This document shows, piece by piece, positions 5,580 through 51,449 of a stretch of DNA of 54,672 nt. The DNA comes from a virus (Duplodnaviria > Caudoviricetes). The notes under the pieces are model-generated. The model was not told the origin of the DNA, did no database searches, and saw only the letters and a program-made list of their open reading frames with translations. The position numbers and the translations under genes are program-made. Location: positions 1 to 54,672 of IMG/VR virus record IMGVR_UViG_3300046780_001084, one strand, 5' to 3'. Position 1 is the first letter of the stretch, and every line of letters begins with the position of its first letter.

Positions 5580-5719
5580 GGTCGCAGCATGTACGACGAC
5601 CACCCCGTGATCGCCGCGTCCAGCAGCCAGAACATCCCGAACCGCCAGTCGCGGCGGTAGAAGGCCTCGCCTGACGCGCAGAGCATGAGGATGCAGATCG
5701 CCATCGGGAACCAGCGCAT
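5576..5719 (-). CDS. Small membrane protein, 47 aa
   Basis: [40 protein letters not shown]; overlaps both neighbours. Confidence 0.6.
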   Translation of the reverse strand: MRWFPMAICILMLCASGEAFYRRDWRFGMFWLLDAAITGWSSYMLRP

Positions 5720-6729
5720 CAGTCCGCCTCCGATACAATCTCGACATCGTGGGGGTAGGATTCGCGGAGTCCCGCGGAGGTGATGCGGATCAGCTGCGGG
5801 TCCTCCCGGAGCTTCCAGAGGTTCGTGGCGTTCTGGTACGAGCAGCCCGAGCGGATTCCCTCCAGCAGGCGGTTGAGGACCTTGGCGTACGGCCCGGCCT
5901 TGGGCACTCGGGCTCGCACCCCCTCGACGTGGCTGGTCTTGTGGGTGGACGAGCCCCGATAGATCCGGTACCCGCCGCCCGCGAAGCCCGCCGCTTCATC
6001 GCAGCCCGCGAAGAGGTTGCCGACCATGACCATGTCCGCGAAGCACAGCGCCTTGACGCAGTCCCCGCCGTTCTTGATGCCGCCGTCAGCGATGATTCCG
6101 TTGCCGGGGAAGAACCCCTCCCGCAACTCGGCGACGTCCATCAGTGCCGTGAGCTGAGGCACGCCGCAGCCGGTCTCGATGCGGGTCGTGCAGAGGCTGC
6201 CCGGTCCGATCCCTACCTTGACGATGTCCGCCCCGGCCTGCCACAGCCGCTTGGCCCCGCCCGCGGTCGCCACGTTGCCGGCGATGATGGTGAGTCCCGG
6301 GATGCGCAGCGCGGTCCCCTTGAGGTACTCGACCATGCGCTGAGCGAGAAGCGAGTCGCCGTGGGCGATGTCCACGCAGATGACACTGACACCCGCGTCG
6401 ACCAGCTTCTTGGCGCGCTCGACCTCGTTCTTGACACCGATCGAAGCGCCGACCAGGGGATCCTCGCCGAGCGCCGTGAACTGAGCGATCTGCTCTTCGA
6501 CGGTCTGGAAGCGGTGGATGAGCGCGAGCCCACCCGACACGACCTGAGCCTTGAGCAGCTGGAGGCCGGCGACGTCCTCCATGTTGGCCGGGATGAGCGG
6601 GTGCTCGAACACGCGGTCGTCGAATCCAACGCGCAGATCGACGTCCTCCTCGCGGCTGTTGACGGTGGAGTTGTACACCGGTTCGAGAAGCACGTCGTCG
6701 TACGACAGCCCCTCACGAATGGCGGCCAT
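5719..6729 (-). CDS. guaB: IMP dehydrogenase / GMP reductase family protein (no CBS domains)
   Basis: [32 protein letters not shown] catalytic Cys loop, IIADGGI, VEGV; GuaB versus GuaC not resolvable by eye. Confidence 0.9.
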
Positions 6730-7961: not shown

Positions 7962-8565
7962 AGTGCCCGTAGTTGCAGCCGACCAGGAATCGCCGGCCAC
8001 CGACCGTCACCTCGGTCTCGAACGAGCCGCAGCACCCCGTCTCGGCCTGCTTGCGGAACCTGCGGACGTCCTTGCGGATCTTGACGTCGGCGAAGCGGAA
8101 ATTGTCGACGTAGTCCAGGTCGTTCGTCTTGATGATCTGCTCCAGCTCGCGGGTCAAATAGAGCTGAAGCTCACCGTAGTCGTTCGCCTGCGGAGGCTTC
8201 ATCCGGCGCCGGTAGCGCTCCTGCTTGATGACCACCGTGAGGTCGCCCTGGGCCCAGTCCGGACGCGTGGGGATGAGGATCGAAGTCGGGTCGTTGACGT
8301 CCGGGTCCACGAACACGAAGTGCTGGGACCGCTGGCCGCGGGGCTCCGCCTTGAAGTAGAACACCCGCTGCTCCTCCGCGTCTTTGAAGATCCCCTTCCA
8401 GTACTGCGCGTTGGTCTGGTGCCAGTACAGGTTGCGGAACCACTCGCCGAACTCGGGCCGGCCGCACACCTTGCAGTCGTACCTGCGCTCGATGCGCTCC
8501 AGGCCCCAGTGGTTGCAGGCGACCTTGTAGTCGCTGTGGTCGAGATTCGTGCATTCTGCGGTCAT
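7960..8565 (-). CDS. Hypothetical protein
   Basis: 201 aa, TGATG-coupled to integrase; C-terminal DNFRFA...GCCGSF...GCNYGH. Confidence 0.8.
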   Translation of the reverse strand: MTAECTNLDHSDYKVACNHWGLERIERRYDCKVCGRPEFGEWFRNLYWHQTNAQYWKGIFKDAEEQRVFYFKAEPRGQRSQHFVFVDPDVNDPTSILIPTRPDWAQGDLTVVIKQERYRRRMKPPQANDYGELQLYLTRELEQIIKTNDLDYVDNFRFADVKIRKDVRRFRKQAETGCCGSFETEVTVGGRRFLVGCNYGH

Positions 8566-9704
8566 CAGTTCACGTAGTCCGCGATGTGGACGTCCGGCAC
8601 CAGCTCAATCTGGACGCGGGCGCGGTCGGCGTCCGAGTAGTTGCCGGGGATCAAGTGGGCGTACCGCTCGGTCACCGTGACCGAGGAGTGACCCATCATT
8701 TCGCGCAGGGTCTCCAGGGTGCCTCCGTTGAGCACCCACTGCGAGGCGAAGGTGTGGCGGGTCGCCTCGTACCAGCGCATCGAGGGCAGCTCCAGTTCCG
8801 TCAGCGCCTGCGCGTACAGCTCGCCCATGCGGTGGTCGCTGAGCACGGTCTTGCCGTCGAACGAGCAAACCAGACCGTCGCGCACGTCCGGGTAGAAGAC
8901 CGGCATCTTGCCGCGCAGGAACCAGTAGAGCGAGTCCGAGATCGGGACCAGCCGGGACTCGCCGTCCTTCAGCTTCCGGAAGCCGGTGCCGTGGCGCGCG
9001 GTCTGCTGGCGCACGTGGATGAGCCGGCCTTCCAGATCGACGTCCGCCCAGCGCAGCGCGCGGACCTCGCCCGTGCGGAGCCCGGCCAGCGCACCTACAA
9101 TGTAGGCAAGAGCAACCCAGCCGTCGTAGGTGGCGAGCTTGTCGTGGATGCGGACGATGTCCCGCGGGTCCCGCAGGAACGGAGTCTTCTTCCAGTCCGT
9201 GTTCGGCGTCAGCTCGTTCCGTCGGGTCTTCCGCGACAGCATCTTGACCGGGTTGACGACTGCCACGCCATCCTCCACCAGGTCGCCGTAGAACGACGAC
9301 AGCAAGGCGATCTGGAGCCCGACGGTACCAGGGGCCAGACCCTTGGTGCGCAGGTCCTGGATGAGGCGCTTGAGCACGGGGACGGTCACCTCGTCGGGGG
9401 TCAGGTGGGCGACCGCGGGCGCCAGGTGGTTCTTCCACCGGTTGCGCTCGTCGTAGTTGGAGGCCATCCCGGCCCGGGAGTCGAGCCAGGTCTGGGCCAG
9501 CTCCCCGAGCGAGTTCGAGGCCTTCTTTTCTTGGGGTACCTCCAAGCCGGCGTTGGCGCGCGCGAGGAAGGCTTGGACCTCCGCCAAGTCGACGGTCTTG
9601 GTGCCGCGGGTGCCGTTCGGGTTGGTCCACTGGACCTGGGCGCGGCCGGCCCGGAGACGGACCGATCCAGTTCCGTGTGGCCGCTTACGCTTTTTCCTGG
9701 CCAC
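8565..9704 (-). CDS. int: Tyrosine recombinase / integrase
   Basis: AGLRTGEVRALRWADVD, RHTFAS, MMGHSSVTVTERYAH (R, R, H, Y catalytic residues); N-terminal arm-binding-like region. Confidence 0.95.
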   Translation of the reverse strand: MARKKRKRPHGTGSVRLRAGRAQVQWTNPNGTRGTKTVDLAEVQAFLARANAGLEVPQEKKASNSLGELAQTWLDSRAGMASNYDERNRWKNHLAPAVAHLTPDEVTVPVLKRLIQDLRTKGLAPGTVGLQIALLSSFYGDLVEDGVAVVNPVKMLSRKTRRNELTPNTDWKKTPFLRDPRDIVRIHDKLATYDGWVALAYIVGALAGLRTGEVRALRWADVDLEGRLIHVRQQTARHGTGFRKLKDGESRLVPISDSLYWFLRGKMPVFYPDVRDGLVCSFDGKTVLSDHRMGELYAQALTELELPSMRWYEATRHTFASQWVLNGGTLETLREMMGHSSVTVTERYAHLIPGNYSDADRARVQIELVPDVHIADYVN

Positions 9705-27346: not shown

Positions 27347-29505
27347 AATTCCTAGACATCGTCATCCCGGCGACTACCGAGGTTGTCGGTCGTGGACCCG
27401 GCCTCGCCGCGTACCTGAAGGGCCTCGCTGCGCTCGCGGGCGAGAACTTCTCGCTGATCCGCACGGGCGATGGCGTCGTCACGGTCGACGTCGACGCGTC
27501 ACACGGTCTCTCGGTCGGAGATCAGATTTTCATCGACGGCGTGTTGCCCACGGGCGAAGTGCCGGCCACCGACTCCGGAACCCCGAGCGGCAACTTTGCG
27601 AGCCCGAACGATACTCAGTCAGGCATCACCGCGGCCTCGATCCACTCGACCAACAGCCAGGCCGGCACGTACGAAGGCGTGTTCAGCCGCGCGATTCGCA
27701 ACCCCGAGGGGAGACTGATCATCATCGGCGGAGCCACCACTTCCGACGGCCTCACCTTCACCCCGAAGGACAACTTCACCGTGCTGGAAGTGACCGGCGA
27801 GACCGTGTCTGGCAGCGGCGGACGTGCGGTCGACTACCTCTGGACCCAGATCGCCCCGGACGGAGCACACGGCTTCAACCTCCCGAACTTCGGGTACCGC
27901 AACTTCGCCGCGTCCCTCCTGACCGACGGCCGTATTCTCTGCACGGGCGGAGCGATCGGCGACGATCTCACTGGCACCCCGGTGCTCGGCTACGACCTGC
28001 TCACCTTCATTCCCCCGGACTCCGTCTCACAGCAACAGGGGATGTTCGACAGCCGAGTCGCGCACGGACAGTGCGCACTGAGCGATGGCGGAGCGCTGGC
28101 CTCCGGCGGCTGGGCGGTCGCCGGCACCCCGCTCGCCACGTCCGAGCGCTTCGACGTGACGACCGAGAGCTGGGCCAACGACGCGGTCATGAAGGTCGCC
28201 CGCATGCACCACGAGCTGGTCGCACTCGACGACGGACGCGTGCTCGCGATCGGAGGTCAGAAGAACTCCGCTGCCACCAACCTCATCAACCGTTGCGAGA
28301 TCTGGAACAGTATCACCTGGGAGCTGACGGGCAACATGACGTACGCCCGCACCCAGTTTGGAGTACTGAAGCTCCCCGACGGCCGCGTGCTCGTCATCGG
28401 CGGTAACGGCTACAACCCGAGCCGCGCACACTCACCTGGAGCACTCAGCTCCTGCGAAATCTTCGACCCGAAAACGGGACTGTGGAGCACGATCGCTTCC
28501 ATGCGCAACGGGCGCTCGCATCCGGCCATCGCGTACCTCCCGACGGAGAACGCCGTGTACGTGACCGGCGGCGCGAACGGCGTGTTCAACGTCGAGGTCC
28601 TGGACTTGGACACCATGCGCTGGCACGTCTCCATGGCCCAGATCCAGACTCCCCACCTCGACCCCACGGGCGGCCTGGTGGGCACCGACGTGTTCGCCAT
28701 GGTTGGCGGCTGGGACCACGCCATCTCCACCGAGAAGACCAACCAGATCGTCGTCCCGGGCGAAGACCGCGTGTGGGAAGGCGCCGGCATCAACGGCATG
28801 CACCGGGTGGCCGAGGTTCCGGACGGTACCCATGTCATCGTCCACACCCGCGAGTACGACTACAGCCACTCCTACACCGTGGCCCGCGCGGGCGCTGACG
28901 TGACCCCGATGCGCGCCGAGGCTGCGCCTTCGACGGTTCCGGGCCCGTTCTCGTACGACGTCAAGACCGGGCTCGCGATCACCGCAACGGCTGGTACCAC
29001 CGACACGGCCTTCAACCGCGGCGTCCACTACTCGTCCGTGCACCTCACGGGCTTGGACCCGGCACTCGACTTCCCCGATGAGGAGGGGTGGCTGGTGTTC
29101 AACTTCGGCTACCACAACATGGTCGGTCCCGTCCGCTACCTGGGACGCCTGAGCGACGAGGACTTGATCCTCGATGCCGACGTACCATTCAGCGCGACCC
29201 TCCCGGCCGGTGCAACCGTGCGATTGCTGTCCGGACGTGTCCCGTTCGAGCCGGCGGCAGACCACCTGGTGGGCAACTTCTACGTCACCGGCACGGCCGC
29301 GGGCCGCGAAGCAGCCCGCCAGATCATCAACGACATCGTGGCCGCCGGCAAGCAGGTGTTGGTGACCGTGATCTACCCGGGCGACCGCGGCCTGGGCGGC
29401 GAGGGCTTCCCGCAAGGCGGCAGCTACAAGCTCTCCGACAAGGTCTCCGTGTGGGGCGGCGACGAGCTGGACAGCGAACTTCCGGCAGCCAGGAAGGGTC
29501 CGTAA
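27343..29505 (+). CDS. Kelch-repeat baseplate/tail protein
   Basis: ATG 27343 (ATGA overlap) MKFLDIVIPATT; Kelch repeats RMHHELVALDDGRVLAIGG, LPDGRVLVIGG. Confidence 0.85.
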   Translation: MKFLDIVIPATTEVVGRGPGLAAYLKGLAALAGENFSLIRTGDGVVTVDVDASHGLSVGDQIFIDGVLPTGEVPATDSGTPSGNFASPNDTQSGITAASIHSTNSQAGTYEGVFSRAIRNPEGRLIIIGGATTSDGLTFTPKDNFTVLEVTGETVSGSGGRAVDYLWTQIAPDGAHGFNLPNFGYRNFAASLLTDGRILCTGGAIGDDLTGTPVLGYDLLTFIPPDSVSQQQGMFDSRVAHGQCALSDGGALASGGWAVAGTPLATSERFDVTTESWANDAVMKVARMHHELVALDDGRVLAIGGQKNSAATNLINRCEIWNSITWELTGNMTYARTQFGVLKLPDGRVLVIGGNGYNPSRAHSPGALSSCEIFDPKTGLWSTIASMRNGRSHPAIAYLPTENAVYVTGGANGVFNVEVLDLDTMRWHVSMAQIQTPHLDPTGGLVGTDVFAMVGGWDHAISTEKTNQIVVPGEDRVWEGAGINGMHRVAEVPDGTHVIVHTREYDYSHSYTVARAGADVTPMRAEAAPSTVPGPFSYDVKTGLAITATAGTTDTAFNRGVHYSSVHLTGLDPALDFPDEEGWLVFNFGYHNMVGPVRYLGRLSDEDLILDADVPFSATLPAGATVRLLSGRVPFEPAADHLVGNFYVTGTAAGREAARQIINDIVAAGKQVLVTVIYPGDRGLGGEGFPQGGSYKLSDKVSVWGGDELDSELPAARKGP

Positions 29506-29930
29506 TGCCTTCGATCGTACTTGCATCAGCACAGGTCATCCTGTTTGTCAACGGAAACCCGTTCGGTCGGGTCAACCGCTTCAGCTACAGCATCGACACC
29601 CCGCGCCGCAAGATCCACACCGTCGACTCGGTGCTGCCGTTCGAGCTGGCCACGGGCGTGACCAACGTGTCAGGCTCGATGGGGCTCTACCGTACCCACC
29701 TCGACGGCGCCGTGGAGGGGCCGGGCATGGTGGCGCCCCTGGAGGAGCTGCCGCGCGAGAAGTACTTCAACATCCTGCTGATCGACCTGGTCTCTCAGAC
29801 CGTGATTTTTCAAGCTGATTTCTGCTCGGTCGAGAGCCAGTCCTGGTCGTTCGAAGCCAAGAGCCTGGTCTCGGGCGCGGTGAACTTTTCTGCACTTTCG
29901 TACAACAATGAGGTGCGTCCGCTCGGGTGA
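29505..29930 (+). CDS. Tail tube-like / tube initiator protein
   Basis: ATG 29505; 141 aa beta-rich, ILFVNG..FSYSI..I..VDS..PFEL..VSGS...CSVESQSWS. Confidence 0.65.
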   Translation: MPSIVLASAQVILFVNGNPFGRVNRFSYSIDTPRRKIHTVDSVLPFELATGVTNVSGSMGLYRTHLDGAVEGPGMVAPLEELPREKYFNILLIDLVSQTVIFQADFCSVESQSWSFEAKSLVSGAVNFSALSYNNEVRPLG

Positions 29931-29948
29931 TTCAGTAGACTTAATCTT
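29929..29948 (+). promoter_or_regulatory. Tandem GATTCAGTAG and TAATCTT motifs upstream of the leader/tRNA unit
   Basis: Both phage motifs adjacent and in sense orientation. Confidence 0.65.
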
Positions 29949-29957
29949 GAGATCACC

Positions 29958-30005
29958 GTGAAGCACCTGTCATCGTCCAGTAGCTCTTCTTCGTCGAGTC
30001 GCTAA
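29958..30005 (+). CDS. Poly-serine leader peptide MKHLSSSSSSSSSSR
   Basis: GTG AAG CAC CTG TCA TCG TCC AGT AGC TCT TCT TCG TCG AGT CGC TAA; GTG 9 nt after AATCTT, same spacing as neighbouring genes. Confidence 0.75.
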   Translation: MKHLSSSSSSSSSSR

Positions 30006-30012
30006 GCGACTC
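29996..30012 (+). promoter_or_regulatory. Hairpin GAGTCGC-TAA-GCGACTC with the leader stop codon as loop
   Basis: Perfect 7-bp inverted repeat; no U tail. Confidence 0.75.
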
Positions 30013-30015
30013 CGT

Positions 30016-30101
30016 GGAAAGTTCTGGGCCGTGGGGTCCGATCCGCCTCGAAAGCGGACATAGCTACCTTCGGGTAGGGGGTTCGACTCCTCAGCTTTCC
30101 T
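30016..30101 (+). tRNA. tRNA-Ser(CGA), 8/4-type cloverleaf
   Basis: Acceptor GGAAAGTT/AGCTTTCC (8 bp), anticodon arm TCCGC-CTCGAAA-GCGGA, variable arm CTACC-TTCG-GGTAG, T arm GGGG-TTCGACT-CCTC (4 bp); no encoded CCA. Confidence 0.85.
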
Positions 30102-30106
30102 CCTTC

Positions 30107-30196
30107 GGAAACGACGTCGCATGTCGGTTTTGCGCAGCAGGTTGCTAACTTGCCGGGCCCGCAAGGGCCCCGAGAGTTCGACTCTCTCCGTTTCCT
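30107..30196 (+). tRNA. tRNA-Ser(GCT)
   Basis: Acceptor GGAAACG/CGTTTCC, D stem CGCA/TGCG, anticodon arm GCAGG-TTGCTAA-CTTGC, variable arm GGGCCC-GCAA-GGGCCC, T arm GAGAG-TTCGACT-CTCTC. Confidence 0.9.
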
Positions 30197-30224
30197 CTGG
30201 CGACACGCAATCTTAAGGGTAACC

Positions 30225-31937
30225 ATGGCCGTTCTCCGCCAAGCTAACCTCCTGGGCAATCAGCGCGTCGACATCCCGCACCTGCGCTCGATCGAGTCGG
30301 CGGTGGCCGGCGACATCGACCTTCTCGCTGGCGTCATGATCGCCGGCAAGGCGCCGCTCATCACCGAGGGCTTCTACGTGCTCTCGACGGGCATCACCAT
30401 CGCGACCGGACTCAAGATCCGCGTCGCCGACAGCAGCCTCATTCACTTCCTTGCGTCCGAGTCCGGATCGATCTTCCACGTGCCGTCCGATCGCCCCGAC
30501 GAACAACTGAACTCGGTCAACCCGCGCATCATCGGCAGCTTCACTTCGGGCATGGTCAACTACGTCGGCCTCGACTTCGTTCGCGAAGCGGACGATACGA
30601 CGGTCGACCTCGTCGAGTTCATCGACTCGGACTCGGAGCTGGAGACGCCGGTCCAGGTGCCGCTCGGGCGCACGCTCGACTACCGCATCGTCATCACGAC
30701 GCTGGACTTCGACAACAACCCCGGTATCTGCCCGATCGCGAAGGTCACGCTCGACGACGCCAACAACGTCACCGTGCTGGAGGATGCGCGTCGTTTCGCA
30801 TTCCGCCTCGGCTCGGGCGGCACGATCCCGAACATCAAGAACTCCTATGCGTGGCCGGCCGGCCGCGCGGAGAACACGAGTGGTGACGTGTTCGTCGGCG
30901 CCGACAAAGCCATCGGCAATTTCAAGGACTGGATGGACGCGATCATGTCGCGTATGTGGGAGGTAGGCGGCGGCGAGTACTGGTACTCACCCACCAACCC
31001 GATCAACGAACGCCTCGCGCGTACGGGCTCTCCGTTCGTCTCGAACGGCGAGTACTTCGAGTGGGACGGAGCGAACATTCACTGGAAGGGCCTGGTCTGG
31101 ATCTTCGCGAACTCGACCGGCGTCGTCAACCCGGTCCAGGACCAAGCTTCCGACTCGGCGGGCCTCACCGACCTCGCTGACGGCGAGTGTATCTACGTCG
31201 ACGTCGACCGCACGCAGGACACCACGATCATCGCCGCCAAGGCTGCCCTCGCGACGCTGGGGTCGCCAGAGATCCCGGGCTCCCGCTACGTCATCGCGTG
31301 GCGCCACAGCAACGACATCTACACGCGTGACCAGTCGTACGCGGTCAACTCTGCGTTCAAGAACGCGACCACCGCGGCGGGTGGCATGGTCAAGCTTTCG
31401 GCCACGAACGGCACCACCTCGTATCCCGCTCAGGTCGCGACCGTCGACGACATCAACTACTTCGCGTTCGCAGGAGGTCTGAGCCGCAGCGGTGACTTCT
31501 TCGGCGGCGCAGGCGATCTCCAGATCGGTGGTTGGGGTCCGGAAGACAACAACGTCCTCATCAGGACCACCGAGACGCAGTACCAGACAGTGATCGACGG
31601 CGATAACAACTGGAGCATCAACGCAACGTCGGCACTCTGCGTTCGCCAGATGCACCCGTTCACGTCAAGCACCTTCTACCGCATCCTGACTCTCCAGGGT
31701 TTCGACGGCAATGACGCGCTCAACAAGGACAGCTTCTCGTTCGAGGCTGCCGGCACGATGCAGTGGAGGATGATCGAGGGCACTCCGGGACCGCCGGCCC
31801 ACACCTTGACGAGCCCTCTCCAATTCAAGACCTACTTCCGTACAAACGGCTTCACCACGCCCAATATTCGCGACCAGCAATGCATCATGGACCGTGACGG
31901 CAACATTACCGTCACGTGGGAAGGACCGGCTTACTAA
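30225..31937 (+). CDS. Baseplate/tail-fibre attachment structural protein
   Basis: True start ATG 30225 (MAVLRQANLLGNQRVD) after CAATCTT; NATTAAGGMVKLS fibre-like motif. Confidence 0.8.
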   Translation: MAVLRQANLLGNQRVDIPHLRSIESAVAGDIDLLAGVMIAGKAPLITEGFYVLSTGITIATGLKIRVADSSLIHFLASESGSIFHVPSDRPDEQLNSVNPRIIGSFTSGMVNYVGLDFVREADDTTVDLVEFIDSDSELETPVQVPLGRTLDYRIVITTLDFDNNPGICPIAKVTLDDANNVTVLEDARRFAFRLGSGGTIPNIKNSYAWPAGRAENTSGDVFVGADKAIGNFKDWMDAIMSRMWEVGGGEYWYSPTNPINERLARTGSPFVSNGEYFEWDGANIHWKGLVWIFANSTGVVNPVQDQASDSAGLTDLADGECIYVDVDRTQDTTIIAAKAALATLGSPEIPGSRYVIAWRHSNDIYTRDQSYAVNSAFKNATTAAGGMVKLSATNGTTSYPAQVATVDDINYFAFAGGLSRSGDFFGGAGDLQIGGWGPEDNNVLIRTTETQYQTVIDGDNNWSINATSALCVRQMHPFTSSTFYRILTLQGFDGNDALNKDSFSFEAAGTMQWRMIEGTPGPPAHTLTSPLQFKTYFRTNGFTTPNIRDQQCIMDRDGNITVTWEGPAY

Positions 31938-34715: not shown

Positions 34716-35078
34716 ATGCCCTCCATCGCCGTCCAAGCAGCCAAGGTTTCCATCACCGCCGCAAACGCCCACGGGCGCCTGACGGTGACGAGCAACGGGT
34801 ACCTCTACCCGGGTACCTACGCATGGGCCGTGAAGGATGACCAGAGCGTCCAGTATCGCGTTCAGATCCTGGCCTGCATCGGCACGGACACCGTCGTCGT
34901 GCGCCGCTGCCACACCAAGAAGGAGCCGGACGGCACTTCGCACGACCAGGAGAACTTCGGCCCCCCGAACTACGCCCTGAGTGACGTGAGTGCTCTCAAC
35001 GGCGGCAGCGCCCACCTCTCCGTCGAAGCTCAGACCGCGCCCGTCGACCCGCACTTTCTCAAGCGCGTCCTGCCGTAA
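34716..35078 (+). CDS. Hypothetical late protein
   Basis: 120 aa after CAATCTTAGAGG; last gene of the plus-strand block. Confidence 0.75.
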   Translation: MPSIAVQAAKVSITAANAHGRLTVTSNGYLYPGTYAWAVKDDQSVQYRVQILACIGTDTVVVRRCHTKKEPDGTSHDQENFGPPNYALSDVSALNGGSAHLSVEAQTAPVDPHFLKRVLP

Positions 35079-46750: not shown

Positions 46751-47491
46751 TCAGGCTGAAGCTTTGATGCCCAACCCGTCCCGAAAGATTGTGGCTGCCG
46801 TTTCCTCATTCACGGTATCGATCGAGTCGAGGTCGACGTTGGTGACCTTCGTGAACAGGCCCGCGAGCGGAGCGCGGGTGGTGGCGGAGGCGTTCTTCAC
46901 GACCACCACCAAACGCTTGCCGTTGAAGTCCTTCGCGAGAGCCTGGGTCACGATGTCGGACTGGGCCGAGACCGTCACCGGGACGCTGCCGTTCGAGCGC
47001 GCGACCAGCTCGCGGATGTAGTCCACCAGCTTCTCGCGGTTCTTGACGACGCGCAGCTCGCTGATCTGGGTGCGGTTCAGCGACCCGTCGTAGCCGGTCT
47101 TCTCGACCAGCTCGCGCAAGGCGTGGTCCATCAGGCCGATCTGGGTGATGGAGAACTCCTTGTTGGGGCCGATGCTGTACTGGACGGCATCCGCCAGCTT
47201 CCGGAAGATCTCCTCCGCGTCCACCAGCACCGCGCCGTTGTCCATCGCGATGTTGACGAACTGCTGGCCCTTCGCCTCGTCGCCCTCCAGGAAGAATCCG
47301 TACGACGAGCGCAGGATGCGCGTGAGGTACTCCAGGCGGAGCTTGGGAAGCTTCACCTTGGCCTGGGCGATCCGCACCTCGATGCCCGGTCGACCCGGCA
47401 GCGGGAACTCCTCGGCGCTCTGCTTCGAGAACTTCTCCGTCTTCCTGTAGTCCTTCAGAATCTCATCCAACGTTCGCGGCAGGTTGTTCAT
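46751..47491 (-). CDS. Hypothetical replication-region protein
   Basis: ATG 47491 MNNLPRTLDE with GAGG RBS; overlaps the dnaE end. Confidence 0.8.
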   Translation of the reverse strand: MNNLPRTLDEILKDYRKTEKFSKQSAEEFPLPGRPGIEVRIAQAKVKLPKLRLEYLTRILRSSYGFFLEGDEAKGQQFVNIAMDNGAVLVDAEEIFRKLADAVQYSIGPNKEFSITQIGLMDHALRELVEKTGYDGSLNRTQISELRVVKNREKLVDYIRELVARSNGSVPVTVSAQSDIVTQALAKDFNGKRLVVVVKNASATTRAPLAGLFTKVTNVDLDSIDTVNEETAATIFRDGLGIKASA

Positions 47492-50400
47492 CTTCCTCTT
47501 CCTCTTCTTTTTCTTTGCCCTTCGGTGGTTCCACAACGATCAGGTCCGACAGACCGAAGGGCTTGTCGTCCTTCCAGCGGTTCAAGACTGCGATCACGAC
47601 CGCGCCCTTGAGGGGTTGGCGGTACACGTCCGCGACCTTGTCCGTATCCTTCTTCGGCCACGCCACGAACTCGTAGCGGCTGCCGTCAACATCGAGCTGG
47701 AGCTTGCACATCTCCTTCTCTTTGTTCTCTCCGTACGCGCGCATCTCGTACGTCTCGACGTACGCAGCGACACCGGCCGTGATCGACTGGTTCTCTCCCA
47801 GACGCTGGACCTGGAGTTGCTCCAGCTGGTCGGCGCTCACGACGCCGATGGTGAGGTTCCGGTGCGTCTTCGAGTTGGGCGGCGTCCAGCCCATGTAGTG
47901 GTTGCCGGCGTCGTCCGTCTCGAAGAAGGTGTTGCCGTGCTGGACCTCGATGAGCTTCGCGAGGTCCTCGCCGTACGTGGGCAGGATCTGCTTGCGCGTC
48001 TGGTAGCGCGGGATGGGGCCGATGTCCCAGAGCTTCGGGTCGACCGGCTGAGGCTTCTTCTTGCCCGTCGCCTTCGCCAGCTCCGCCTCGAACATCTCGA
48101 ACTGCTCGCCGACGTGCATGCCCTGGGGGAAGAGCGAGTCCATCGCGCCCGTCAAAATACACGCGCGCACAACCTTGCGGTTGAGGGCGTTGGTGCCGCG
48201 CTTGAGCACGCGCTCGTTGACGGTCGTGGTCTCGGTGAGCTTCTTCTTCGGGTTCGCGGGGTCCGGGACCTTGGTCTTCTTCGTCTTCTCCTTGAAGATC
48301 CACGTGCCGGTGTTGCGCTGGTGCAGGTCGATCTTCTGGCAGAAGTCGGCGATGTCGACGTACGGTGCGTAGAGCTTAAGCTGGTCGCTCGCGGCGTCGC
48401 CAACGCCCTGGAGCTGCGACAGCGGCATGCGGATGCGCTCGCCCTGGATCTCGTAGTTCTCGCCCGAGAGCTTCACGTCCGGCAGGTCGATGATGCGGTT
48501 GATGTGGCGCCAGAACTTGTCCGACACCTCGTTCTTCGAGGCGTTGCGGAGAACCGCGCACCACCACTGGAGCGGGAAGTGGTGCTTCAGGTACGCGCAC
48601 GCGTAGCTGACGGTCACGTAGGCGACCGAGTGGGACTTGTTGAACCCGTACTTGGCCCAGCTGATGAAGAACTTCCACGCCTCTTCGGCCAGCTCGCGGC
48701 TGCCGAGGATCTTGGCGCCGTCGACGAGGAAGGGCTCGTAGAGCTTCTGGATCTTGTCGTACTTCTTCTTGGCGACCAGCTTTCGGAAGTTCTCCGCCTC
48801 GGACAGCGTGCAGTTCGTGATCTGCTGGTACATGAACTGGAGCTGCTCTTGGTACACCATGACCCCGTACGTCTCGGGGATGAGGTCGTTGAACACCTGC
48901 AAGATGTCCGGCGTGGGCTTGTCACCCCGAGCGCGGCGCGCGAACTCGACGAGGGCGTTGTGGGTCTTGTCGAGCTGGTCCGGGTCACGCAGTTCGACCT
49001 TGAGGGCGCCGGGGCGATCGAGCGCGGTGAAGGCCGCCATGTCCTCGATCGAGCTGATGGCGTAGTGTCCGTCCGGCTTGCGGTGGGCAAAGTGACGCAG
49101 CCACTGAACGGCGCCGGGCGTGTTGAACTGGAACACCGTCTCGGTGCGGCCGAGCGCGACGTCCGTGAACACGTCCTGGTCGTCCGGGAGGTCCCAGATG
49201 TCAGCGAACCGCGGGCTGTCCTCGATGATCGGGAGCGGGACGAGGTGGTGCGCCGGCACGAACTTGCCGTTGAGCTGCTGATCCTCGAACGTGAGGCGGT
49301 CCTTGTAGGTCTCGTGGATGAGGCGGATGCAGTCGGTGATGTCGTCGAGCGCGCCGAGGCCGAGGAAGTCCATCTTCAGCCCGCCGACTGCTTCGACCGA
49401 GCCCGCGGTGTAGGCGGTGACGCGGCCGTCGGTGACGGTGGTGAGCGGGATGAACTCGTTGATGGGCTTGTTCGCGATGACGAACGCACATGCGTGCTTG
49501 CCCTTGTGGCGCGTGAGGCCGAGGCATTTCTGGACGATGTCCCAGTCGCCTGGGAACGCCCTGATGTACGCCATCAGCGCGGGATCGTACTCGACCGACC
49601 CCTGGATGTGCTGCTCGCCTTCCTTGTCGTTGCCCATGACGAACTCATGGTCCGTCATGCCCTGCGGCGGCATGATCATCCGGCCGGTGAACGAGTAGAT
49701 CTCCTTGGGAACGTGACCTCGGCGCTCGCGCGAGACGTCCTGGATGGCCTGGCGCACGCGCAGCGTGGAGTCGACTGAGATCTGGGCGTAGTGGTCCCCG
49801 AAGCGCTTCTTGAGCCATCCGGTCTGGTCGTCGATGAGCAGCCCGCGGCGGAGCTTCGGCAAGTCCTGGTCGATGTCGGGGAGACCGCCGGACGCGATAC
49901 GGTCGAGGGTGATGAAACGCTCGACCGAGAGCTTGTACTTCAGCGGGTCGACGTGGGTGATGCCCAGGAGGTACGCCAAGATGAGGCCGGCGGCCGAACC
50001 ACGGCCCGGACCCGTGAGAAGCTTCTGCTCCTCGAAGAAGCTGCACACCTCTTCGTCGACCATGAGGTACGGCAGCAGGTCGATGGTGCCGTTGTTGTGG
50101 AGCAGCTCAATCTCGATCTTCAGCCGCGCGACCATGGCCGGGTTCTGCCAGTCCATTCTCCCGTGCTTCGCGATGAGGTCCATCGTGTAGCGGAGAGAGT
50201 CGTGCTTGTCGCCCTTGAACCAAGTCTGGAGGGCGTACTTCTCCTCGTAGAACTTGGTGGGCAAGCTCGGGGGCGTGTTGAACTCGAAGGCCTTGAACTG
50301 CTCGGCCCACGCGTGGGAGTTGTCGACCCAGCTCTCGAACTCGCCGGGGCGGAGCGCGAGCTTGTGTTCGATCACGGTCTGAGCTTCCGCGCTGCTCATG

Positions 50401-51449
50401 CGGTGGTAGCTGCCGTAGAAGCGCCACGGGCCGCTCTGCGCGAGGCGGACGTCCTGGACAACCTTCTCGTCCGGGGTCGCGTAGTGGCTGTCGTCGCCAA
50501 CCAAGATCGGAACGTTGTAGCGCTGCGCGAGGATGCGCATGGCCTTGTTCAGCCCAGCTTGGATGTCGCCGTCCGGCGCCCAGGGGCGGCACTCGTTGGG
50601 GAGGTAGTCGCGGATCTCCTCGCATCGTTCGATCTCGACCGGCGGCAGCTCTTCCCACACGCGGTTGTTCTTGACCGCCAGCAGGACCTTGTGCTCGCCG
50701 CTCTTCCACTGCTTCGCCAGCTCACCGGCCTTGATCTCGCCGACGTTGGTGCGGAGGGTCTTGCCGTCGTACCAGCGGAGCTTGGTGCCGTCCTTCATCG
50801 TGAGGAAGATGCCCTGGACCCAGTTCATGCTGGTGTCGTGCGGGTTCAGCTCGACGTAGAGGTTGCCGGGCTTCACGATCGACTTCAGCTTCTCGAAGTA
50901 CGCCGTGGCCGTGGCCATGTCGTCGTTGTCCTTCAAATGGCGCTGGACGACGCCGATCATGCAGCCGGTGGTCATCGTGACGTTGTGAGAGCCCAGCTCT
51001 TCCAGGTCGCGCCACGTGAAGAGCGGCTTGCGCTCCTTGCCGTGCTTGCGATCGTCCGGCTCCATCTTCTCCAGGCGAGATTCGAGGGCCGCGTCGGCCG
51101 CCGAGAGCAGGCGGATCGCGCACTCGTACGCGGTTTGGTCCTTGAAGTGGACGCAGAAGTGCATGTACTTGGGGGCGTTCATGAACGCGCCGCGGTCGTT
51201 CTTGCGGTACCCGTGCTTGGTCAGAATCGGGCAGTCGTCGTCACGGAGGTAGCCTTCCATGCCGAGGACTGGCGTGAGGCTGTTGGCCTTGGCCAGATCG
51301 TAGATCTCGCGGCACGCCGCGAGCGACCCGTGGTCGGTGGCGGTCAGTACCCCGGTGCCCAGCTCCACCTCGCGCGCGGCGAAAGCCTCCGGAGTGGAGC
51401 CAGAGTCGAGACTCTGGGGGTGGGAATGGCAGGTCGCGAAATTCTTCAC
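47463..51449 (-). CDS. dnaE: DNA polymerase III alpha subunit (family C)
   Basis: PHP H.H..SLD, TDHG, GPGRGSAAG..YLLGIT.VDP, LPDIDQD, GKHA, KMDFLGL, VFQF, VYQEQ, YGFNKSHS, C-terminal OB fold. Confidence 0.97.
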   Translation of the reverse strand: MKNFATCHSHPQSLDSGSTPEAFAAREVELGTGVLTATDHGSLAACREIYDLAKANSLTPVLGMEGYLRDDDCPILTKHGYRKNDRGAFMNAPKYMHFCVHFKDQTAYECAIRLLSAADAALESRLEKMEPDDRKHGKERKPLFTWRDLEELGSHNVTMTTGCMIGVVQRHLKDNDDMATATAYFEKLKSIVKPGNLYVELNPHDTSMNWVQGIFLTMKDGTKLRWYDGKTLRTNVGEIKAGELAKQWKSGEHKVLLAVKNNRVWEELPPVEIERCEEIRDYLPNECRPWAPDGDIQAGLNKAMRILAQRYNVPILVGDDSHYATPDEKVVQDVRLAQSGPWRFYGSYHRMSSAEAQTVIEHKLALRPGEFESWVDNSHAWAEQFKAFEFNTPPSLPTKFYEEKYALQTWFKGDKHDSLRYTMDLIAKHGRMDWQNPAMVARLKIEIELLHNNGTIDLLPYLMVDEEVCSFFEEQKLLTGPGRGSAAGLILAYLLGITHVDPLKYKLSVERFITLDRIASGGLPDIDQDLPKLRRGLLIDDQTGWLKKRFGDHYAQISVDSTLRVRQAIQDVSRERRGHVPKEIYSFTGRMIMPPQGMTDHEFVMGNDKEGEQHIQGSVEYDPALMAYIRAFPGDWDIVQKCLGLTRHKGKHACAFVIANKPINEFIPLTTVTDGRVTAYTAGSVEAVGGLKMDFLGLGALDDITDCIRLIHETYKDRLTFEDQQLNGKFVPAHHLVPLPIIEDSPRFADIWDLPDDQDVFTDVALGRTETVFQFNTPGAVQWLRHFAHRKPDGHYAISSIEDMAAFTALDRPGALKVELRDPDQLDKTHNALVEFARRARGDKPTPDILQVFNDLIPETYGVMVYQEQLQFMYQQITNCTLSEAENFRKLVAKKKYDKIQKLYEPFLVDGAKILGSRELAEEAWKFFISWAKYGFNKSHSVAYVTVSYACAYLKHHFPLQWWCAVLRNASKNEVSDKFWRHINRIIDLPDVKLSGENYEIQGERIRMPLSQLQGVGDAASDQLKLYAPYVDIADFCQKIDLHQRNTGTWIFKEKTKKTKVPDPANPKKKLTETTTVNERVLKRGTNALNRKVVRACILTGAMDSLFPQGMHVGEQFEMFEAELAKATGKKKPQPVDPKLWDIGPIPRYQTRKQILPTYGEDLAKLIEVQHGNTFFETDDAGNHYMGWTPPNSKTHRNLTIGVVSADQLEQLQVQRLGENQSITAGVAAYVETYEMRAYGENKEKEMCKLQLDVDGSRYEFVAWPKKDTDKVADVYRQPLKGAVVIAVLNRWKDDKPFGLSDLIVVEPPKGKEKEEEEEDEQPAANVG

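Follow-up and report, generated by a model that had tools for sequence, protein, structure and literature searches.

A serine-codon leader and stop-codon hairpin before two phage tRNA-Ser genes: a candidate ribosome-gated sequestor of the RNase P site

It is an open question what leads phages to carry tRNA genes and by what means these genes are controlled. The window analysed here (54,672 nucleotides, a complete 54.7 kb genome of a soil phage present in soil and rhizosphere samples) bears, within the late structural operon, a very short ORF with ten consecutive serine codons followed by two tRNA-Ser genes, and the locus raises the question of whether the decoding of serine could regulate the supply of the tRNAs that decode it. 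An initial annotation proposed that the serine codons of this leader pair with the 5' end of the first tRNA, and that a ribosome stalled on these codons sets the tRNA free. To investigate this proposal, the locus was compared with homologous loci in related phages, and the predicted folds of leader and tRNA were weighed against several chance models.

The serine cassette and its relatives

The features of the locus are as follows:

29088..29930, plus strand: upstream structural gene (ORF list and sequence), stop codon TGA at 29928..29930; a homologous gene is present in relatives
29943..29948, plus strand: AATCTT gene-start motif, 9 nt 5' of the mini-ORF start codon
29958..30005, plus strand: mini-ORF with GTG start, 15 sense codons and TAA, reading MKHL, then ten Ser, then R
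29970..29999, plus strand: run of ten consecutive Ser codons (codon table and six-frame scan)
29975..30029, plus strand: long interrupted stem of 23 bp (predicted minimum free energy fold in the window), pairing Ser codons 2-10 with the spacer, the acceptor 5' strand, U8 and the D-stem 5' strand
29987..30019, plus strand: conserved core of the predicted alternative fold, consisting of the hairpin and a short extension (alignment of seven sequences)
29996..30012, plus strand: conserved 7-bp hairpin (RNAfold and alignment of cassettes)
30016..30103, plus strand: tRNA-Ser(CGA), type II, with long variable arm and CCA not encoded (ARAGORN, Rfam)
30107..30196, plus strand: tRNA-Ser(GCU), type II (Rfam, RNAfold cloverleaf, relatives)
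30209..31937, plus strand: downstream 570-aa structural gene with AATCTT, SD-like AAGGG, and ATG at 30225

The mini-ORF looks like a gene and is putatively translated, because it has the AATCTT start motif, keeps its start, frame and serines among relatives, and contains the strongest Ser run of the genome. The motif occurs at 15 sites on the plus strand, and at 8 of them an ATG or GTG follows after 6-11 nt. Six of these starts belong to long structural-module ORFs (10622, 13169, 19973, 23683, 30225, and 33393), and the remaining two are that of the mini-ORF itself and an ATG at 34716. The run is the sole one with 10/10 Ser in a six-frame scan of 109,286 ten-codon windows (the next unrelated best has 8/10), and no other of 90 tRNA upstream regions compared exceeds 6/10 cognate codons. 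All six Ser codons are used, and six of the ten positions are occupied by UCG, AGC, or AGU, the codons read by the two phage tRNAs.

Relatives were retrieved via the downstream 570-aa structural gene, with 80 of 161 relatives taken in. Of 90 homologous loci, 6 combine the Ser run with the tRNA pair, a combination that none of the remaining 84 shows. There are at least seven cassettes including that of the window (six in relatives), with six distinct leaders, and all seven share one layout: gene-start motif, Ser ORF, 7-bp hairpin, tRNA-Ser(CGA), and then tRNA-Ser(GCU). AATCT is present in 7/7 cassettes, and each distinct leader contains the mini-ORF, with 14-16 sense codons of which 7-10 are Ser. 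The six leaders retain a start codon (GTG or ATG) and the frame, Ser is preserved despite AGY/UCN codon-box changes or 3-nt indels, and the 3' end, UCG AGU CGC UAA, is invariant; its last Ser codons, UCG and AGU, which are read by the encoded tRNAs, adjoin and enter the hairpin arm. On the strength of the cassettes, the six-frame scan and the 90 loci, the serine leader noticed in the initial annotation is a conserved element that moves together with the tRNA pair. Read-through of the upstream gene's stop into the Ser run, which is in frame in the window, was also considered and was rejected because L008 and L009 have a different frame or an in-frame stop between.

The hairpin pairs 29996-30002 with 30006-30012, and its loop (30003-30005) is the TAA of the mini-ORF. 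The 5' arm is made of the last Ser and the Arg codons, with the loop beginning at the stop codon. Predicted stabilities are -10.3 to -10.6 kcal/mol for the hairpin alone in the window and -8.8 to -11.5 kcal/mol in the seven cassettes, where the loop is 3-6 nt long and the stem is preserved, changing from G-C to G.U only. In all seven the hairpin ends 1-3 nt 5' of tRNA +1, and the stop codon lies 12-15 nt from tRNA +1. No U-tract follows the hairpin. No intrinsic terminator and no sigma-70 promoter were detected in scans of the leader; between 29500 and 30500 the terminator scan lists only 29788-29802 and the T arm of the second tRNA. Sequence and scan agree in this respect with the initial annotation, which had considered intrinsic termination unlikely.

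The first tRNA is, from the covariation in its alignment, a bacterial-type type II tRNA-Ser with a long variable arm: in the seven sequences, 15 of the 30 pairs of the cloverleaf show compensatory changes, among them acceptor pairs 4, 5, 7, and 8. It is called by ARAGORN and scores 32.3 bits with the Rfam tRNA-Sec model, below the gathering score. tRNA-Ser(GCU) scores 31.1 bits in Rfam, also below the gathering score, and was missed by ARAGORN in the window, where its anticodon was read by eye; ARAGORN finds a tRNA-Ser(gct) homologue in L001, L008, L009, L010, L016, L020, and L190. These low scores mark both as divergent phage tRNAs.

Wider searches added little to this set. A blastn search of 50,697 phage records gave no match. 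With a 22-mer from the leader, viral_contigs yielded the L001 contig alone and genome_contigs gave no match. A degenerate 15-mer taken at the end of the ORF matched 104 and at least 120 stretches; among 225 matches in the loci examined a possible 3' arm lay nearby in 19, of which a single one, L190, proved to be a true cassette. For the 3' end of the second tRNA, a pattern search matched 3 + 1 loci, none of them a new cassette. A survey of 24 runs showed none of RNA, and four DNA-contig runs covered the locus in part and contained no informative variants. A 163-nt contig in X10 hints at a further leader whose start codon, ATG, occupies the equivalent position of the frame.

Pairing between the leader and the first tRNA

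All of the pairs drawn in the initial annotation are present in the window. Beyond the hairpin, CG at 29992-93 pairs with CG at 30013-14, 29987-90 and 29982-85 with 30016-23, and 29975-80 with 30024-29, giving a stem of 23 pairs that includes 3 G.U pairs and is interrupted by single-base bulges. The RNAfold minimum free energy (MFE) structure of 29975-30029 is exactly this stem (-26.2 kcal/mol, 66% of the ensemble), with a z-score of -5.04 and none of 200 dinucleotide shuffles as good, much of the z-score stemming from the 7-bp hairpin by itself. The suggested mimicry of the tRNA 3' strand AGCTTTCC by the leader's AGCTCTTC amounts to a match at 6 of 8 positions, and one detail needs correction, as 30016-23 had been taken for the whole acceptor 5' strand, which is 30016-30022, with 30023 being U8.

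When the leader is folded together with the whole tRNA, the MFE structure includes the long stem (-55.1, against -50.8 for hairpin plus cloverleaf, i.e., 4.3 kcal/mol better), and the two mutually exclusive folds that had been proposed are indeed predicted for the window. In the modelled ensemble without a ribosome, tRNA nucleotides 1-7 are leader-paired with a probability of 0.97 and the acceptor stem has a probability of 0.00. Dominance of the cloverleaf regardless of the leader had been named as an outcome that would speak against the proposal; the window's predicted ensemble is the reverse of this. Refolding barriers estimated by findpath were 14.5-23 kcal/mol, values that are upper bounds and on which no conclusion is based here.

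To judge how far such pairing could arise by chance, the hairpin and tRNA were held fixed and only the 38 nt upstream were varied. The window then falls in the tail formed by 3% of dinucleotide shuffles, 0.7% of synonymous recodings, 5.5-9% of random 38-mers from the same phage, and about 7% of a set of 67 unrelated tRNA genes, each left with its own upstream sequence. For the seven loci, window first, the fractions of dinucleotide shuffles at or below the native E(alt)-E(cloverleaf) are 0.03, 0.285, 0.425, 0.04, 0.04, 0.06, and 0.525, which places the window, L009, L010, and L020 in the 3-6% tail of composition-matched nulls, and the p values from synonymous recoding are 0.007, 0.18, 0.42, 0.06, 0.003, 0.19, and 0.76. 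Native combinations of leader and tRNA average -9.7, compared with -7.8 for swapped ones. Overall, the nulls are beaten moderately, and clearly in 2-4 of the 7 loci. Shuffled or random leaders themselves yield predicted interactions of -5 to -9 kcal/mol, and E(alt) is below E(cloverleaf) in 36% of the 67 unrelated tRNA genes under a crude model that ignores tRNA tertiary structure.

The long stem as drawn is not conserved. Only 13-18 of its 23 pairs are able to form in the six relatives, and the outermost 3 bp are confined to the window. Across the alignment 79.2% of long-stem cells are paired, compared with a mean of 79.9% in between-sequence shuffles, and hence there is no co-adaptation signal; covariation in homologues is absent beyond one pair. 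Acceptor positions 4, 5, 7, and 8 of the tRNA covary with their own 3' partners and not with the leader, and L001 has the same leader as the window although its first tRNA differs. The probability of leader pairing in the full-length ensemble differs among the seven cassettes (0.97, 0.69, 0.42, 0.85, 0.82, 0.89, and 0.00, with the window first and L190 last), L190 having no predicted competition at all. When the RNA is truncated as in co-transcriptional folding, the hairpin is prolonged onto the 5' end of the tRNA in the MFE structures of 7/7 cassettes, weakly so in L190 (-4.1); the window, L009, L010, and L020 have an extension that covers the whole acceptor 5' strand and reaches the D arm. 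Mutually exclusive folds appear in the MFE structures of 4 of 6 loci folded.

In the aligned sequences, the conserved part is smaller than the long stem and consists of the hairpin plus about 5 bp over positions -1 to +4, in which the last UCU UCR codons pair with position -1 and tRNA +1 to +4. Within this core (hairpin + 5 bp) 96.4% of cells are paired across the 7 sequences, compared with 38-59% after a shift of the 3' partners by 1-3 columns; an equally high score is reached by 68 of 500 shuffles. One core pair changes on both sides (G:C in four sequences, A:U in two, and G.U in one), so that a leader UCG faces C(-1) or a leader UCA faces U(-1), and this single compensatory pair may represent one evolutionary event. 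The pairing between leader and tRNA may also be a by-product, since U-rich codons pair with any purine-rich acceptor strand. Each of the two strands has grounds of its own for being conserved, as Ser codons on one side and as the 5' end of tRNA-Ser on the other.

Ribosome gating and competing explanations

The further claim, that a ribosome on the Ser codons frees the tRNA 5' end, was borne out in silico, in that masking flips the predicted fold. In a scan run on 3 of the 7 loci, a ribosome-sized mask on any Ser codon brought the acceptor stem to 0.88-0.99. Without a ribosome, the probability that positions -1 to -6 are unpaired was 0.02, 0.06, and 0.00 in the three loci scanned. A mask on the last four Ser codons is predicted to open the hairpin too, so that about 10 nt 5' of the cleavage site lie single-stranded outside the ribosome. 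According to a study of engineered switches, positions -1 to -4 should be single-stranded for RNase P, and a synthetic sequestor hairpin directly 5' of a tRNA blocks E. coli RNase P in vitro as well as in vivo (PMC7897497). By analogy, the leader fold may inhibit RNase P cleavage here, to the regulatory benefit of the phage.

We therefore put forward, tentatively but as quite possible, that the leader is a ribosome-gated sequestor of the RNase P site, acting as an attenuator-like serine sensor before the tRNA-Ser pair. In this proposal, the late polycistronic transcript would carry a translated mini-ORF rich in Ser codons. As long as no ribosome is present, both the cleavage site and the 5' strand of the tRNA would be buried and the cloverleaf out-competed or delayed. 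When Ser-tRNA decoding capacity is short, a ribosome would dwell on the Ser codons and mask the leader strand, allowing the acceptor stem to form; a stall on the last four Ser codons would open the hairpin too, exposing the roughly 10 nt single strand 5' of the site, and RNase P could then release the tRNAs. The output would be tRNA maturation, and possibly transcript survival, rather than intrinsic termination. We infer both the translation of the mini-ORF and the stalling of ribosomes on it. The fuller version, in which the phage senses serine decoding through the leader peptide and both hairpin and pairing gate the maturation of the late-operon tRNA-Ser genes, is possible but somewhat doubtful. 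A pure folding switch of this kind would probably be leaky, because each later ribosome would re-open the trap, unless an irreversible step (Rho termination or decay) followed.

The explanation that competes best, doubtful in our estimate, is that the hairpin punctuates the transcript, either by protecting the 3' end of the upstream late mRNA after the RNase P cut or by marking the processing site. The pairing would then be incidental, and the Ser mini-ORF would have a different output or merely keep ribosomes on the transcript. Consistent with this, cleavage would leave an overhang of 1-3 nt after the hairpin in 7/7 cassettes, and in an unrelated phage family a hairpin with covarying arms lies 3 nt before the first tRNA of an array without any run of cognate codons, suggesting that such hairpins may have a more general role. 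The interaction energies already reached by shuffled or random leaders, the missing co-adaptation signal, and the lineage-specific distal helices also suit this explanation. It does not account for a Ser ORF with a proper start signal tied to tRNA-Ser genes, nor for a stop codon that always lies in the loop, where translation would melt a purely protective hairpin, nor for the four loci in the tail of the composition-matched nulls. We retain the ribosome-gated sequestor as the preferred reading.

Leader ORFs that control the access of Rho exist in other operons, and Rho-dependent attenuation is an unlikely explanation of the present locus. An untranslated, C-rich leader would load Rho, the position of the ribosome on the Ser codons would set the exposure of the loading site, and transcription would stop before or within the tRNA genes. 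C exceeds G in 7/7 leaders (11-14 C and 5-8 G in 35-41 nt), the intrinsic terminator is absent, and Rho termination might provide the irreversible step that the pure folding switch is missing. Against this, the C-rich stretch is short (~40 nt), and the ribosome-free leader is predicted to be base-paired and would hence be hidden from Rho.

That the locus has no regulatory function, the Ser run being an untranslated pyrimidine tract or relic and the window's stem a chance fold, appears quite unlikely. The SD-like sequence of the window's mini-ORF is weak (GAGAT), and rare Ser codons make up 5/10 of the run (UCU, UCA, and AGU together account for 10.8% of the phage's Ser codons), as expected of non-coding DNA. 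Identity between the leaders of the window and L001 is likewise unexceptional, and special conservation between the two was rejected, the 76-nt identical run being one of six identical runs of at least 75 nt within 6.9 kb. The start, frame, stop position, and Ser richness are nevertheless preserved in six leaders despite codon-box changes, and the AATCTT motif, the top Ser run of the genome, and the strict co-occurrence with the tRNA pair all argue for function. A small Ser-rich product with a function of its own is highly improbable. The ORF is conserved and has a start signal, but its N-terminal residues differ in each leader (MKHL, MKFL, MKLVR, MFTR, MFLL, and MKRT), P, Y, T, or A interrupt the Ser run at varying places, and only the hairpin-arm codons are invariant.

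Related systems and significance

Leader-peptide attenuation is textbook knowledge for biosynthetic and synthetase operons, and to our knowledge it is not known for tRNA genes; no precedent for such a sensor on tRNA genes was found in the literature searched. The leu leader also has rare cognate codons. With the known attenuators of amino-acid operons and pheST (trpL, hisL, leuL, pheL, and pheM; see also PMC1183508 and PMC3082878), the serine leader has in common a short ORF that possesses a start of its own and a run of cognate codons. As in these attenuators, the leader codons may serve as one strand of mutually exclusive helices, and the position of the ribosome would then select the fold. 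It differs in having no U-tract terminator, in standing before tRNA genes instead of enzyme genes, and in its place inside a phage late structural operon; its 'on' structure would be the cloverleaf and its presumed output RNase P access. A Trp-Trp-stop frame before a tRNA array in another phage family was considered as a trp-type leader and rejected, because neither its start codon nor its frame is conserved and the covariation of the Trp codons is that of a hairpin arm.

A further likeness is to the synthetic RNase P riboswitch, in which the proximal 5' leader of a tRNA is covered by a hairpin immediately before it, as predicted for the cassette, and opening of that hairpin restores processing (PMC7897497). 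That device is engineered and opened by a theophylline aptamer, whereas the present hairpin is natural and conserved and its proposed opener is the ribosome. Bacterial RNase P is also inhibited by pairing that extends the acceptor stem, extra pairs at the junction of leader and acceptor slowing productive binding; in that case the leader pairs with the 3' RCCA, whereas here it pairs with the tRNA 5' strand and with itself (PMC9433436). Mycobacterial poly-cysteine leaderless short ORFs, reported to act as Cys-responsive attenuators, resemble the mini-ORF as tiny ORFs rich in a single amino acid that sense its supply, but their targets are cysteine-metabolism operons, with neither tRNA genes nor a tRNA 5' end (bioRxiv 10.1101/834739).

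If the proposed sequestor is real, it would be the first ribosome-mediated attenuator found in nature to act on tRNA genes, as well as the first RNase P sequestor switch that is not engineered, extending attenuation to tRNA supply and providing a natural counterpart of the engineered RNase P switches. It would feed decoding capacity back to tRNA production, possibly in answer to depletion of host tRNA-Ser during infection, and would constitute a small, portable device for sensing the capacity to decode serine. Should the long pairing turn out to be incidental, the conserved combination of Ser mini-ORF, stop-codon hairpin, and tRNA-Ser pair would still need explaining.

T-box riboswitches sense the state of a specific tRNA and control the same amino-acid decoding system, binding the tRNA directly and without a ribosome. 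The cassette would share with them the sensing on behalf of genes of the same amino-acid decoding system, with the ribosome as the proposed sensor. An Rfam scan of the locus at E up to 1 detected no T-box or other cis-regulatory family; it returned two tRNAs, and a decayed third tRNA under the leader was rejected on this basis. The same scan also gave a weak match on the minus strand to a plastid 3'-UTR family, which we take as chance.

Gene context and distribution of the cassette

The window is a complete virus record of 54,672 bases with a G+C content of 61-66%. A structural block on the + strand includes matches to baseplate and tail-fibre proteins, and there is a RecA-like match that is weak, falling under Pfam's cut-off. 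Between two structural genes lie a Ser-codon mini-ORF, a hairpin and two tRNA genes, with 3 bases separating the hairpin from the first tRNA and 3 bases separating the tRNAs.

Features of the window (mini-ORF, Ser run and hairpin read from the sequence)
5719-6729, - strand, IMPDH/GMP-reductase-like protein encoded by the phage
8565-9704, - strand, tyrosine integrase encoded by the phage
10610, 13153, 19958, 23670, 29943, 30209, 33381, 34699, + strand, AATCTT before structural-module start codons
29928-30, + strand, TGA stop of the upstream structural gene
29943-48, + strand, AATCTT motif
29958 (GTG) to 30003-05 (TAA), + strand, mini-ORF
29970-29999, + strand, ten consecutive Ser codons, then Arg
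29996-30002 with 30006-30012, + strand, 7-bp hairpin with the stop codon as loop
30016-30103, + strand, tRNA-Ser(CGA) (ARAGORN)
30107-30196, + strand, second type II tRNA, tRNA-Ser(GCU) in relatives (Rfam; ARAGORN on homologues)
30225, + strand, start of the next gene, again behind AATCTT
47463-51449, - strand, DnaE-type polymerase III alpha encoded by the phage

Both tRNAs fall below the gathering score of the Rfam tRNA-Sec model (32.3 bits for the first, 31.1 bits for the second), and ARAGORN misses the second in the window, its homologues in relatives being tRNA-Ser(GCU); automatic annotation of the window would give one tRNA or none. No tRNA genes beyond these two were found in the genome. 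An attP site at the tRNAs next to the integrase was ruled out, as the integrase is 20 kb away.

With the downstream 570-aa protein as query, relatives were found at 5 viral, 6 genome and 161 metagenome loci, 80 of the 161 being taken in. The tRNA-Ser(CGA)/tRNA-Ser(GCU) pair stands immediately 5' of the 570-aa gene in one viral locus (L001) and five metagenome loci (L008, L009, L010, L016 and L020, with L016 identical to L008 across the cassette), and these are, among the relatives taken in, every one with at least 70% protein identity; in relatives of ~50% identity a short intergenic spacer takes the place of the cassette. When 450 nt upstream of 90 homologous loci were scanned, at least 7 Ser in 10 codons occurred in precisely the six loci with the tRNA pair and in 0 of the 84 others. 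On this strict co-occurrence, sequence comparison indicates that leader and tRNAs are one cassette. A pattern search added a further locus, L190, where the cassette stands in front of a different gene and therefore appears to move as a unit. This brings the cassettes to seven and, since the window and L001 have the same leader, the distinct leaders to six. The L190 cassette lies at ~779-921 on the - strand, and ARAGORN finds only its GCU tRNA.

Between the window (30000-30199) and its closest relative (L001/L006), the tRNA genes are 61% and 71% identical per 100-nt bin and the flanks 88-99%, with the tRNA differences compensatory in stems. This suggests either that tRNA alleles have been swapped between conserved flanks or that the tRNAs have undergone fast, compensated evolution.

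Conservation of the Ser mini-ORF

All seven cassettes have AATCT(T/A), a Shine-Dalgarno-like purine stretch, a GTG or ATG start and between 14 and 16 sense codons, 7-10 of them for Ser, and all end in UCR UCG AGU CGC UAA, so that UCG and AGU are invariant final Ser codons. In the window, six long structural ORFs and the mini-ORF alike have AATCTT 6-11 nt 5' of their start codon; the mini-ORF therefore bears the phage's ordinary gene-start signal. Most of the AATCTT sites listed above lie a few bases past the preceding stop codon, and the motif looks like a candidate phage-specific intercistronic or translation-start signal; it is not known to be complementary to the usual anti-Shine-Dalgarno sequence. 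That the TGA of the upstream gene is in frame with the mini-ORF (29928-29958) in the window and L001, and not in L008 or L009, is probably a coincidence.

A scan of every ten-codon stretch in all six frames (109,286 in total) finds 10/10 Ser only at 29970. Ser is maintained where AGY and UCN codons swap or 3-nt indels compensate, and N-terminal residues vary across all distinct leaders; the persistence of Ser richness despite these changes points to selection on codon identity, not on peptide or pairing. In the phage's structural genes UCG (34.7%), AGC (30.5%) and UCC (24.0%) lead Ser codon use, and the two tRNAs therefore read the two commonest Ser codons. A 163-nt contig (run X10) over window 29967-30005 carries a variant leader with a different upstream part and ATG in the frame position of the window's GTG, a hint that soil holds another allele of the leader.

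Leader-tRNA pairing in the window and in relatives

The initial annotation had drawn by hand a long stem between leader Ser codons and the 5' end of the first tRNA, and proposed two mutually exclusive folds. All 23 of its pairs are present, and for 29975-30029 RNAfold gives the identical structure as its minimum free energy (MFE) fold. The energy is -26.2 kcal/mol (z -5.04), a value that none of 200 dinucleotide shuffles attained. With leader and whole tRNA, the MFE fold (-55.1) retains the stem and lacks the cloverleaf, the best acceptor-enforced fold reaches -50.8, and the ensemble probability that the leader holds tRNA nt 1-7 is 0.97, so that two competing folds are predicted; as tRNA tertiary structure is left out of the model, these energies overstate the leader-paired fold.

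When folding is limited to the leader and the initial 16 nt of the tRNA, the MFE fold in 7/7 cassettes prolongs the hairpin into the tRNA 5' end. For the full tRNA, the energy of the leader-paired fold minus that of the cloverleaf is -4.3 kcal/mol in the window, +0.6 in L001, +0.2 in L008, -6.9 in L009, -7.0 in L010, -1.8 in L020 and +3.9 in L190; against dinucleotide shuffles of their upstream 35-41 nt, four of the seven rank in the lowest 3-6%. For 67 unrelated tRNA genes, each folded with the 58 nt that naturally precede it, the mean is +1.1 (sd 4.3) and 7% reach -4.3. Interactions of -3.5 to -9 kcal/mol are reached even with shuffled or synonymously recoded leaders, or with random phage sequence in their place. 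Synonymous recoding is clearly beaten only by the window (p = 0.007) and L010 (p = 0.003), and swapping leaders between tRNAs costs little (-7.8, against -9.7 for the native pairs).

Conservation of the long stem as drawn did not hold up: by alignment projection 13-18 of the 23 pairs are possible in relatives, and the outermost three are found only in the window. Its cells are paired in 79.2% of cases, compared with 35-53% after a shift of the partners by 1-3 columns; co-adaptation is absent, between-sequence shuffling of the 3' letters giving 79.9%. RNAalifold on the seven sequences returns the cloverleaf, with compensatory changes at 15/30 pairs, including acceptor pairs 4, 5, 7 and 8, and the leader has not followed these changes; L001 has the window's leader though its first tRNA is only ~61-71% identical, between flanks of 88-99%. 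Since a U-rich leader can pair with either A or G on the tRNA side (U-A, U.G), missing covariation is weak evidence either way, and the evidence for selection on leader-tRNA pairing is mixed.

The hairpin occurs in 7/7 cassettes, with energies of -8.8 to -11.5 kcal/mol and a loop of 3-6 nt, and stops 1-3 nt short of the tRNA 5' end (+1). With a five-pair extension, in which the final UCU UCR codons meet positions -1 to +4, it makes up a smaller conserved core. In this core 96.4% of cells are paired and a single pair differs on both sides (four sequences with G:C, two with A:U, one with G.U); this is not significant, 68 of 500 shuffles scoring equally high. The long stem is a window- and lineage-specific elaboration, or chance reinforcement, of this core. 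The original interpretation is partly supported: it keeps its predicted alternative folds and gains a conserved Ser mini-ORF, and loses the conserved long stem; the cassette of Ser mini-ORF, stop-codon hairpin and tRNA-Ser genes is both more robust and more novel.

A possible mechanism and its alternatives

The likeliest reading, still tentative, is that the element sequesters the RNase P site (-1/+1) under the control of a translating ribosome. A ribosome-sized mask, from -15 to +10 nt of the A-site codon, was placed at each codon in turn. In the window, with the ribosome absent or on codons 1-3, leader-tRNA pairing is 0.90-0.96 and the acceptor stem at most 0.06; the fold would then bury the RNase P site and the tRNA 5' strand. 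As initially proposed, masking the leader frees the tRNA in the prediction: with the A site on any Ser codon the acceptor stem reaches 0.88-0.99. For an A site at one of the last four Ser codons, the hairpin is predicted to be open (P = 0.49 at the first, 0.00 at the remaining three), and most of positions -1 to -6 are unpaired and clear of the ribosome, so that a stall there would expose the site. With the A site on the stop codon, which lies 12-15 nt from +1 in all cassettes, four of these six nucleotides fall within the ribosome. L001 behaves like the window; L190 shows the hairpin tier only.

The RNase P step is plausible because E. coli RNase P is blocked, in vitro as well as in vivo, by a synthetic sequestor hairpin set directly 5' of a tRNA (PMC7897497). 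We infer translation, stalling, RNase P inhibition and a benefit of the element. Later ribosomes would re-open the trap, and a lasting decision therefore needs an irreversible step (Rho termination, decay); alternatively, only the timing of the first, RNAP-coupled ribosome may matter.

The hairpin could instead be punctuation, or protect the 3' end of the upstream mRNA after tRNA excision, with the pairing a by-product. An unrelated phage family has a hairpin with covarying arms 3 nt before its array's first tRNA and no cognate-codon run, but the Ser ORF would be left without explanation, and we consider this account rather unlikely. Rho-dependent attenuation via the leader, which has more C than G and no terminator, is improbable. 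Rare codons (UCU, UCA, AGU) make up half of the window's ten Ser codons, which fits either a sensitive sensor or mere non-coding composition; that the element has no function at all seems a shade less probable still. A functional peptide is very improbable, the Ser run being interrupted by P, Y, T or A at differing positions with Ser richness kept.

The element would act in the manner of a leader-peptide attenuator and shares with that family an ORF of its own and a run of cognate codons, but its alternative folds are predicted in silico only and an intrinsic terminator is missing, and we therefore do not assign it to that family. Full-text literature searches, judged from titles and abstracts, turned up no leader peptide or cognate-codon ORF governing tRNA genes; the nearest systems among the results are the synthetic RNase P riboswitch (PMC7897497) and poly-Cys sORF attenuators.

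In viral contigs of another family (L111, L098, L121, L128 and L135), an array of Ser, Trp, Ser and Leu tRNAs is headed by a ~100-nt leader with two hairpins, the second ending 3 nt before the first tRNA. Trp-Trp-stop in the first-hairpin arm of some members was rejected as a trp-type leader, since the RNA covaries and the frame is not conserved. At ~1640-1700 of L111 and in its homologues, a 17-codon ORF with 7 Ser, possibly a chance occurrence, lies ~60 nt 5' of tRNA-Ser(GCU); its start codon is not conserved in L098.
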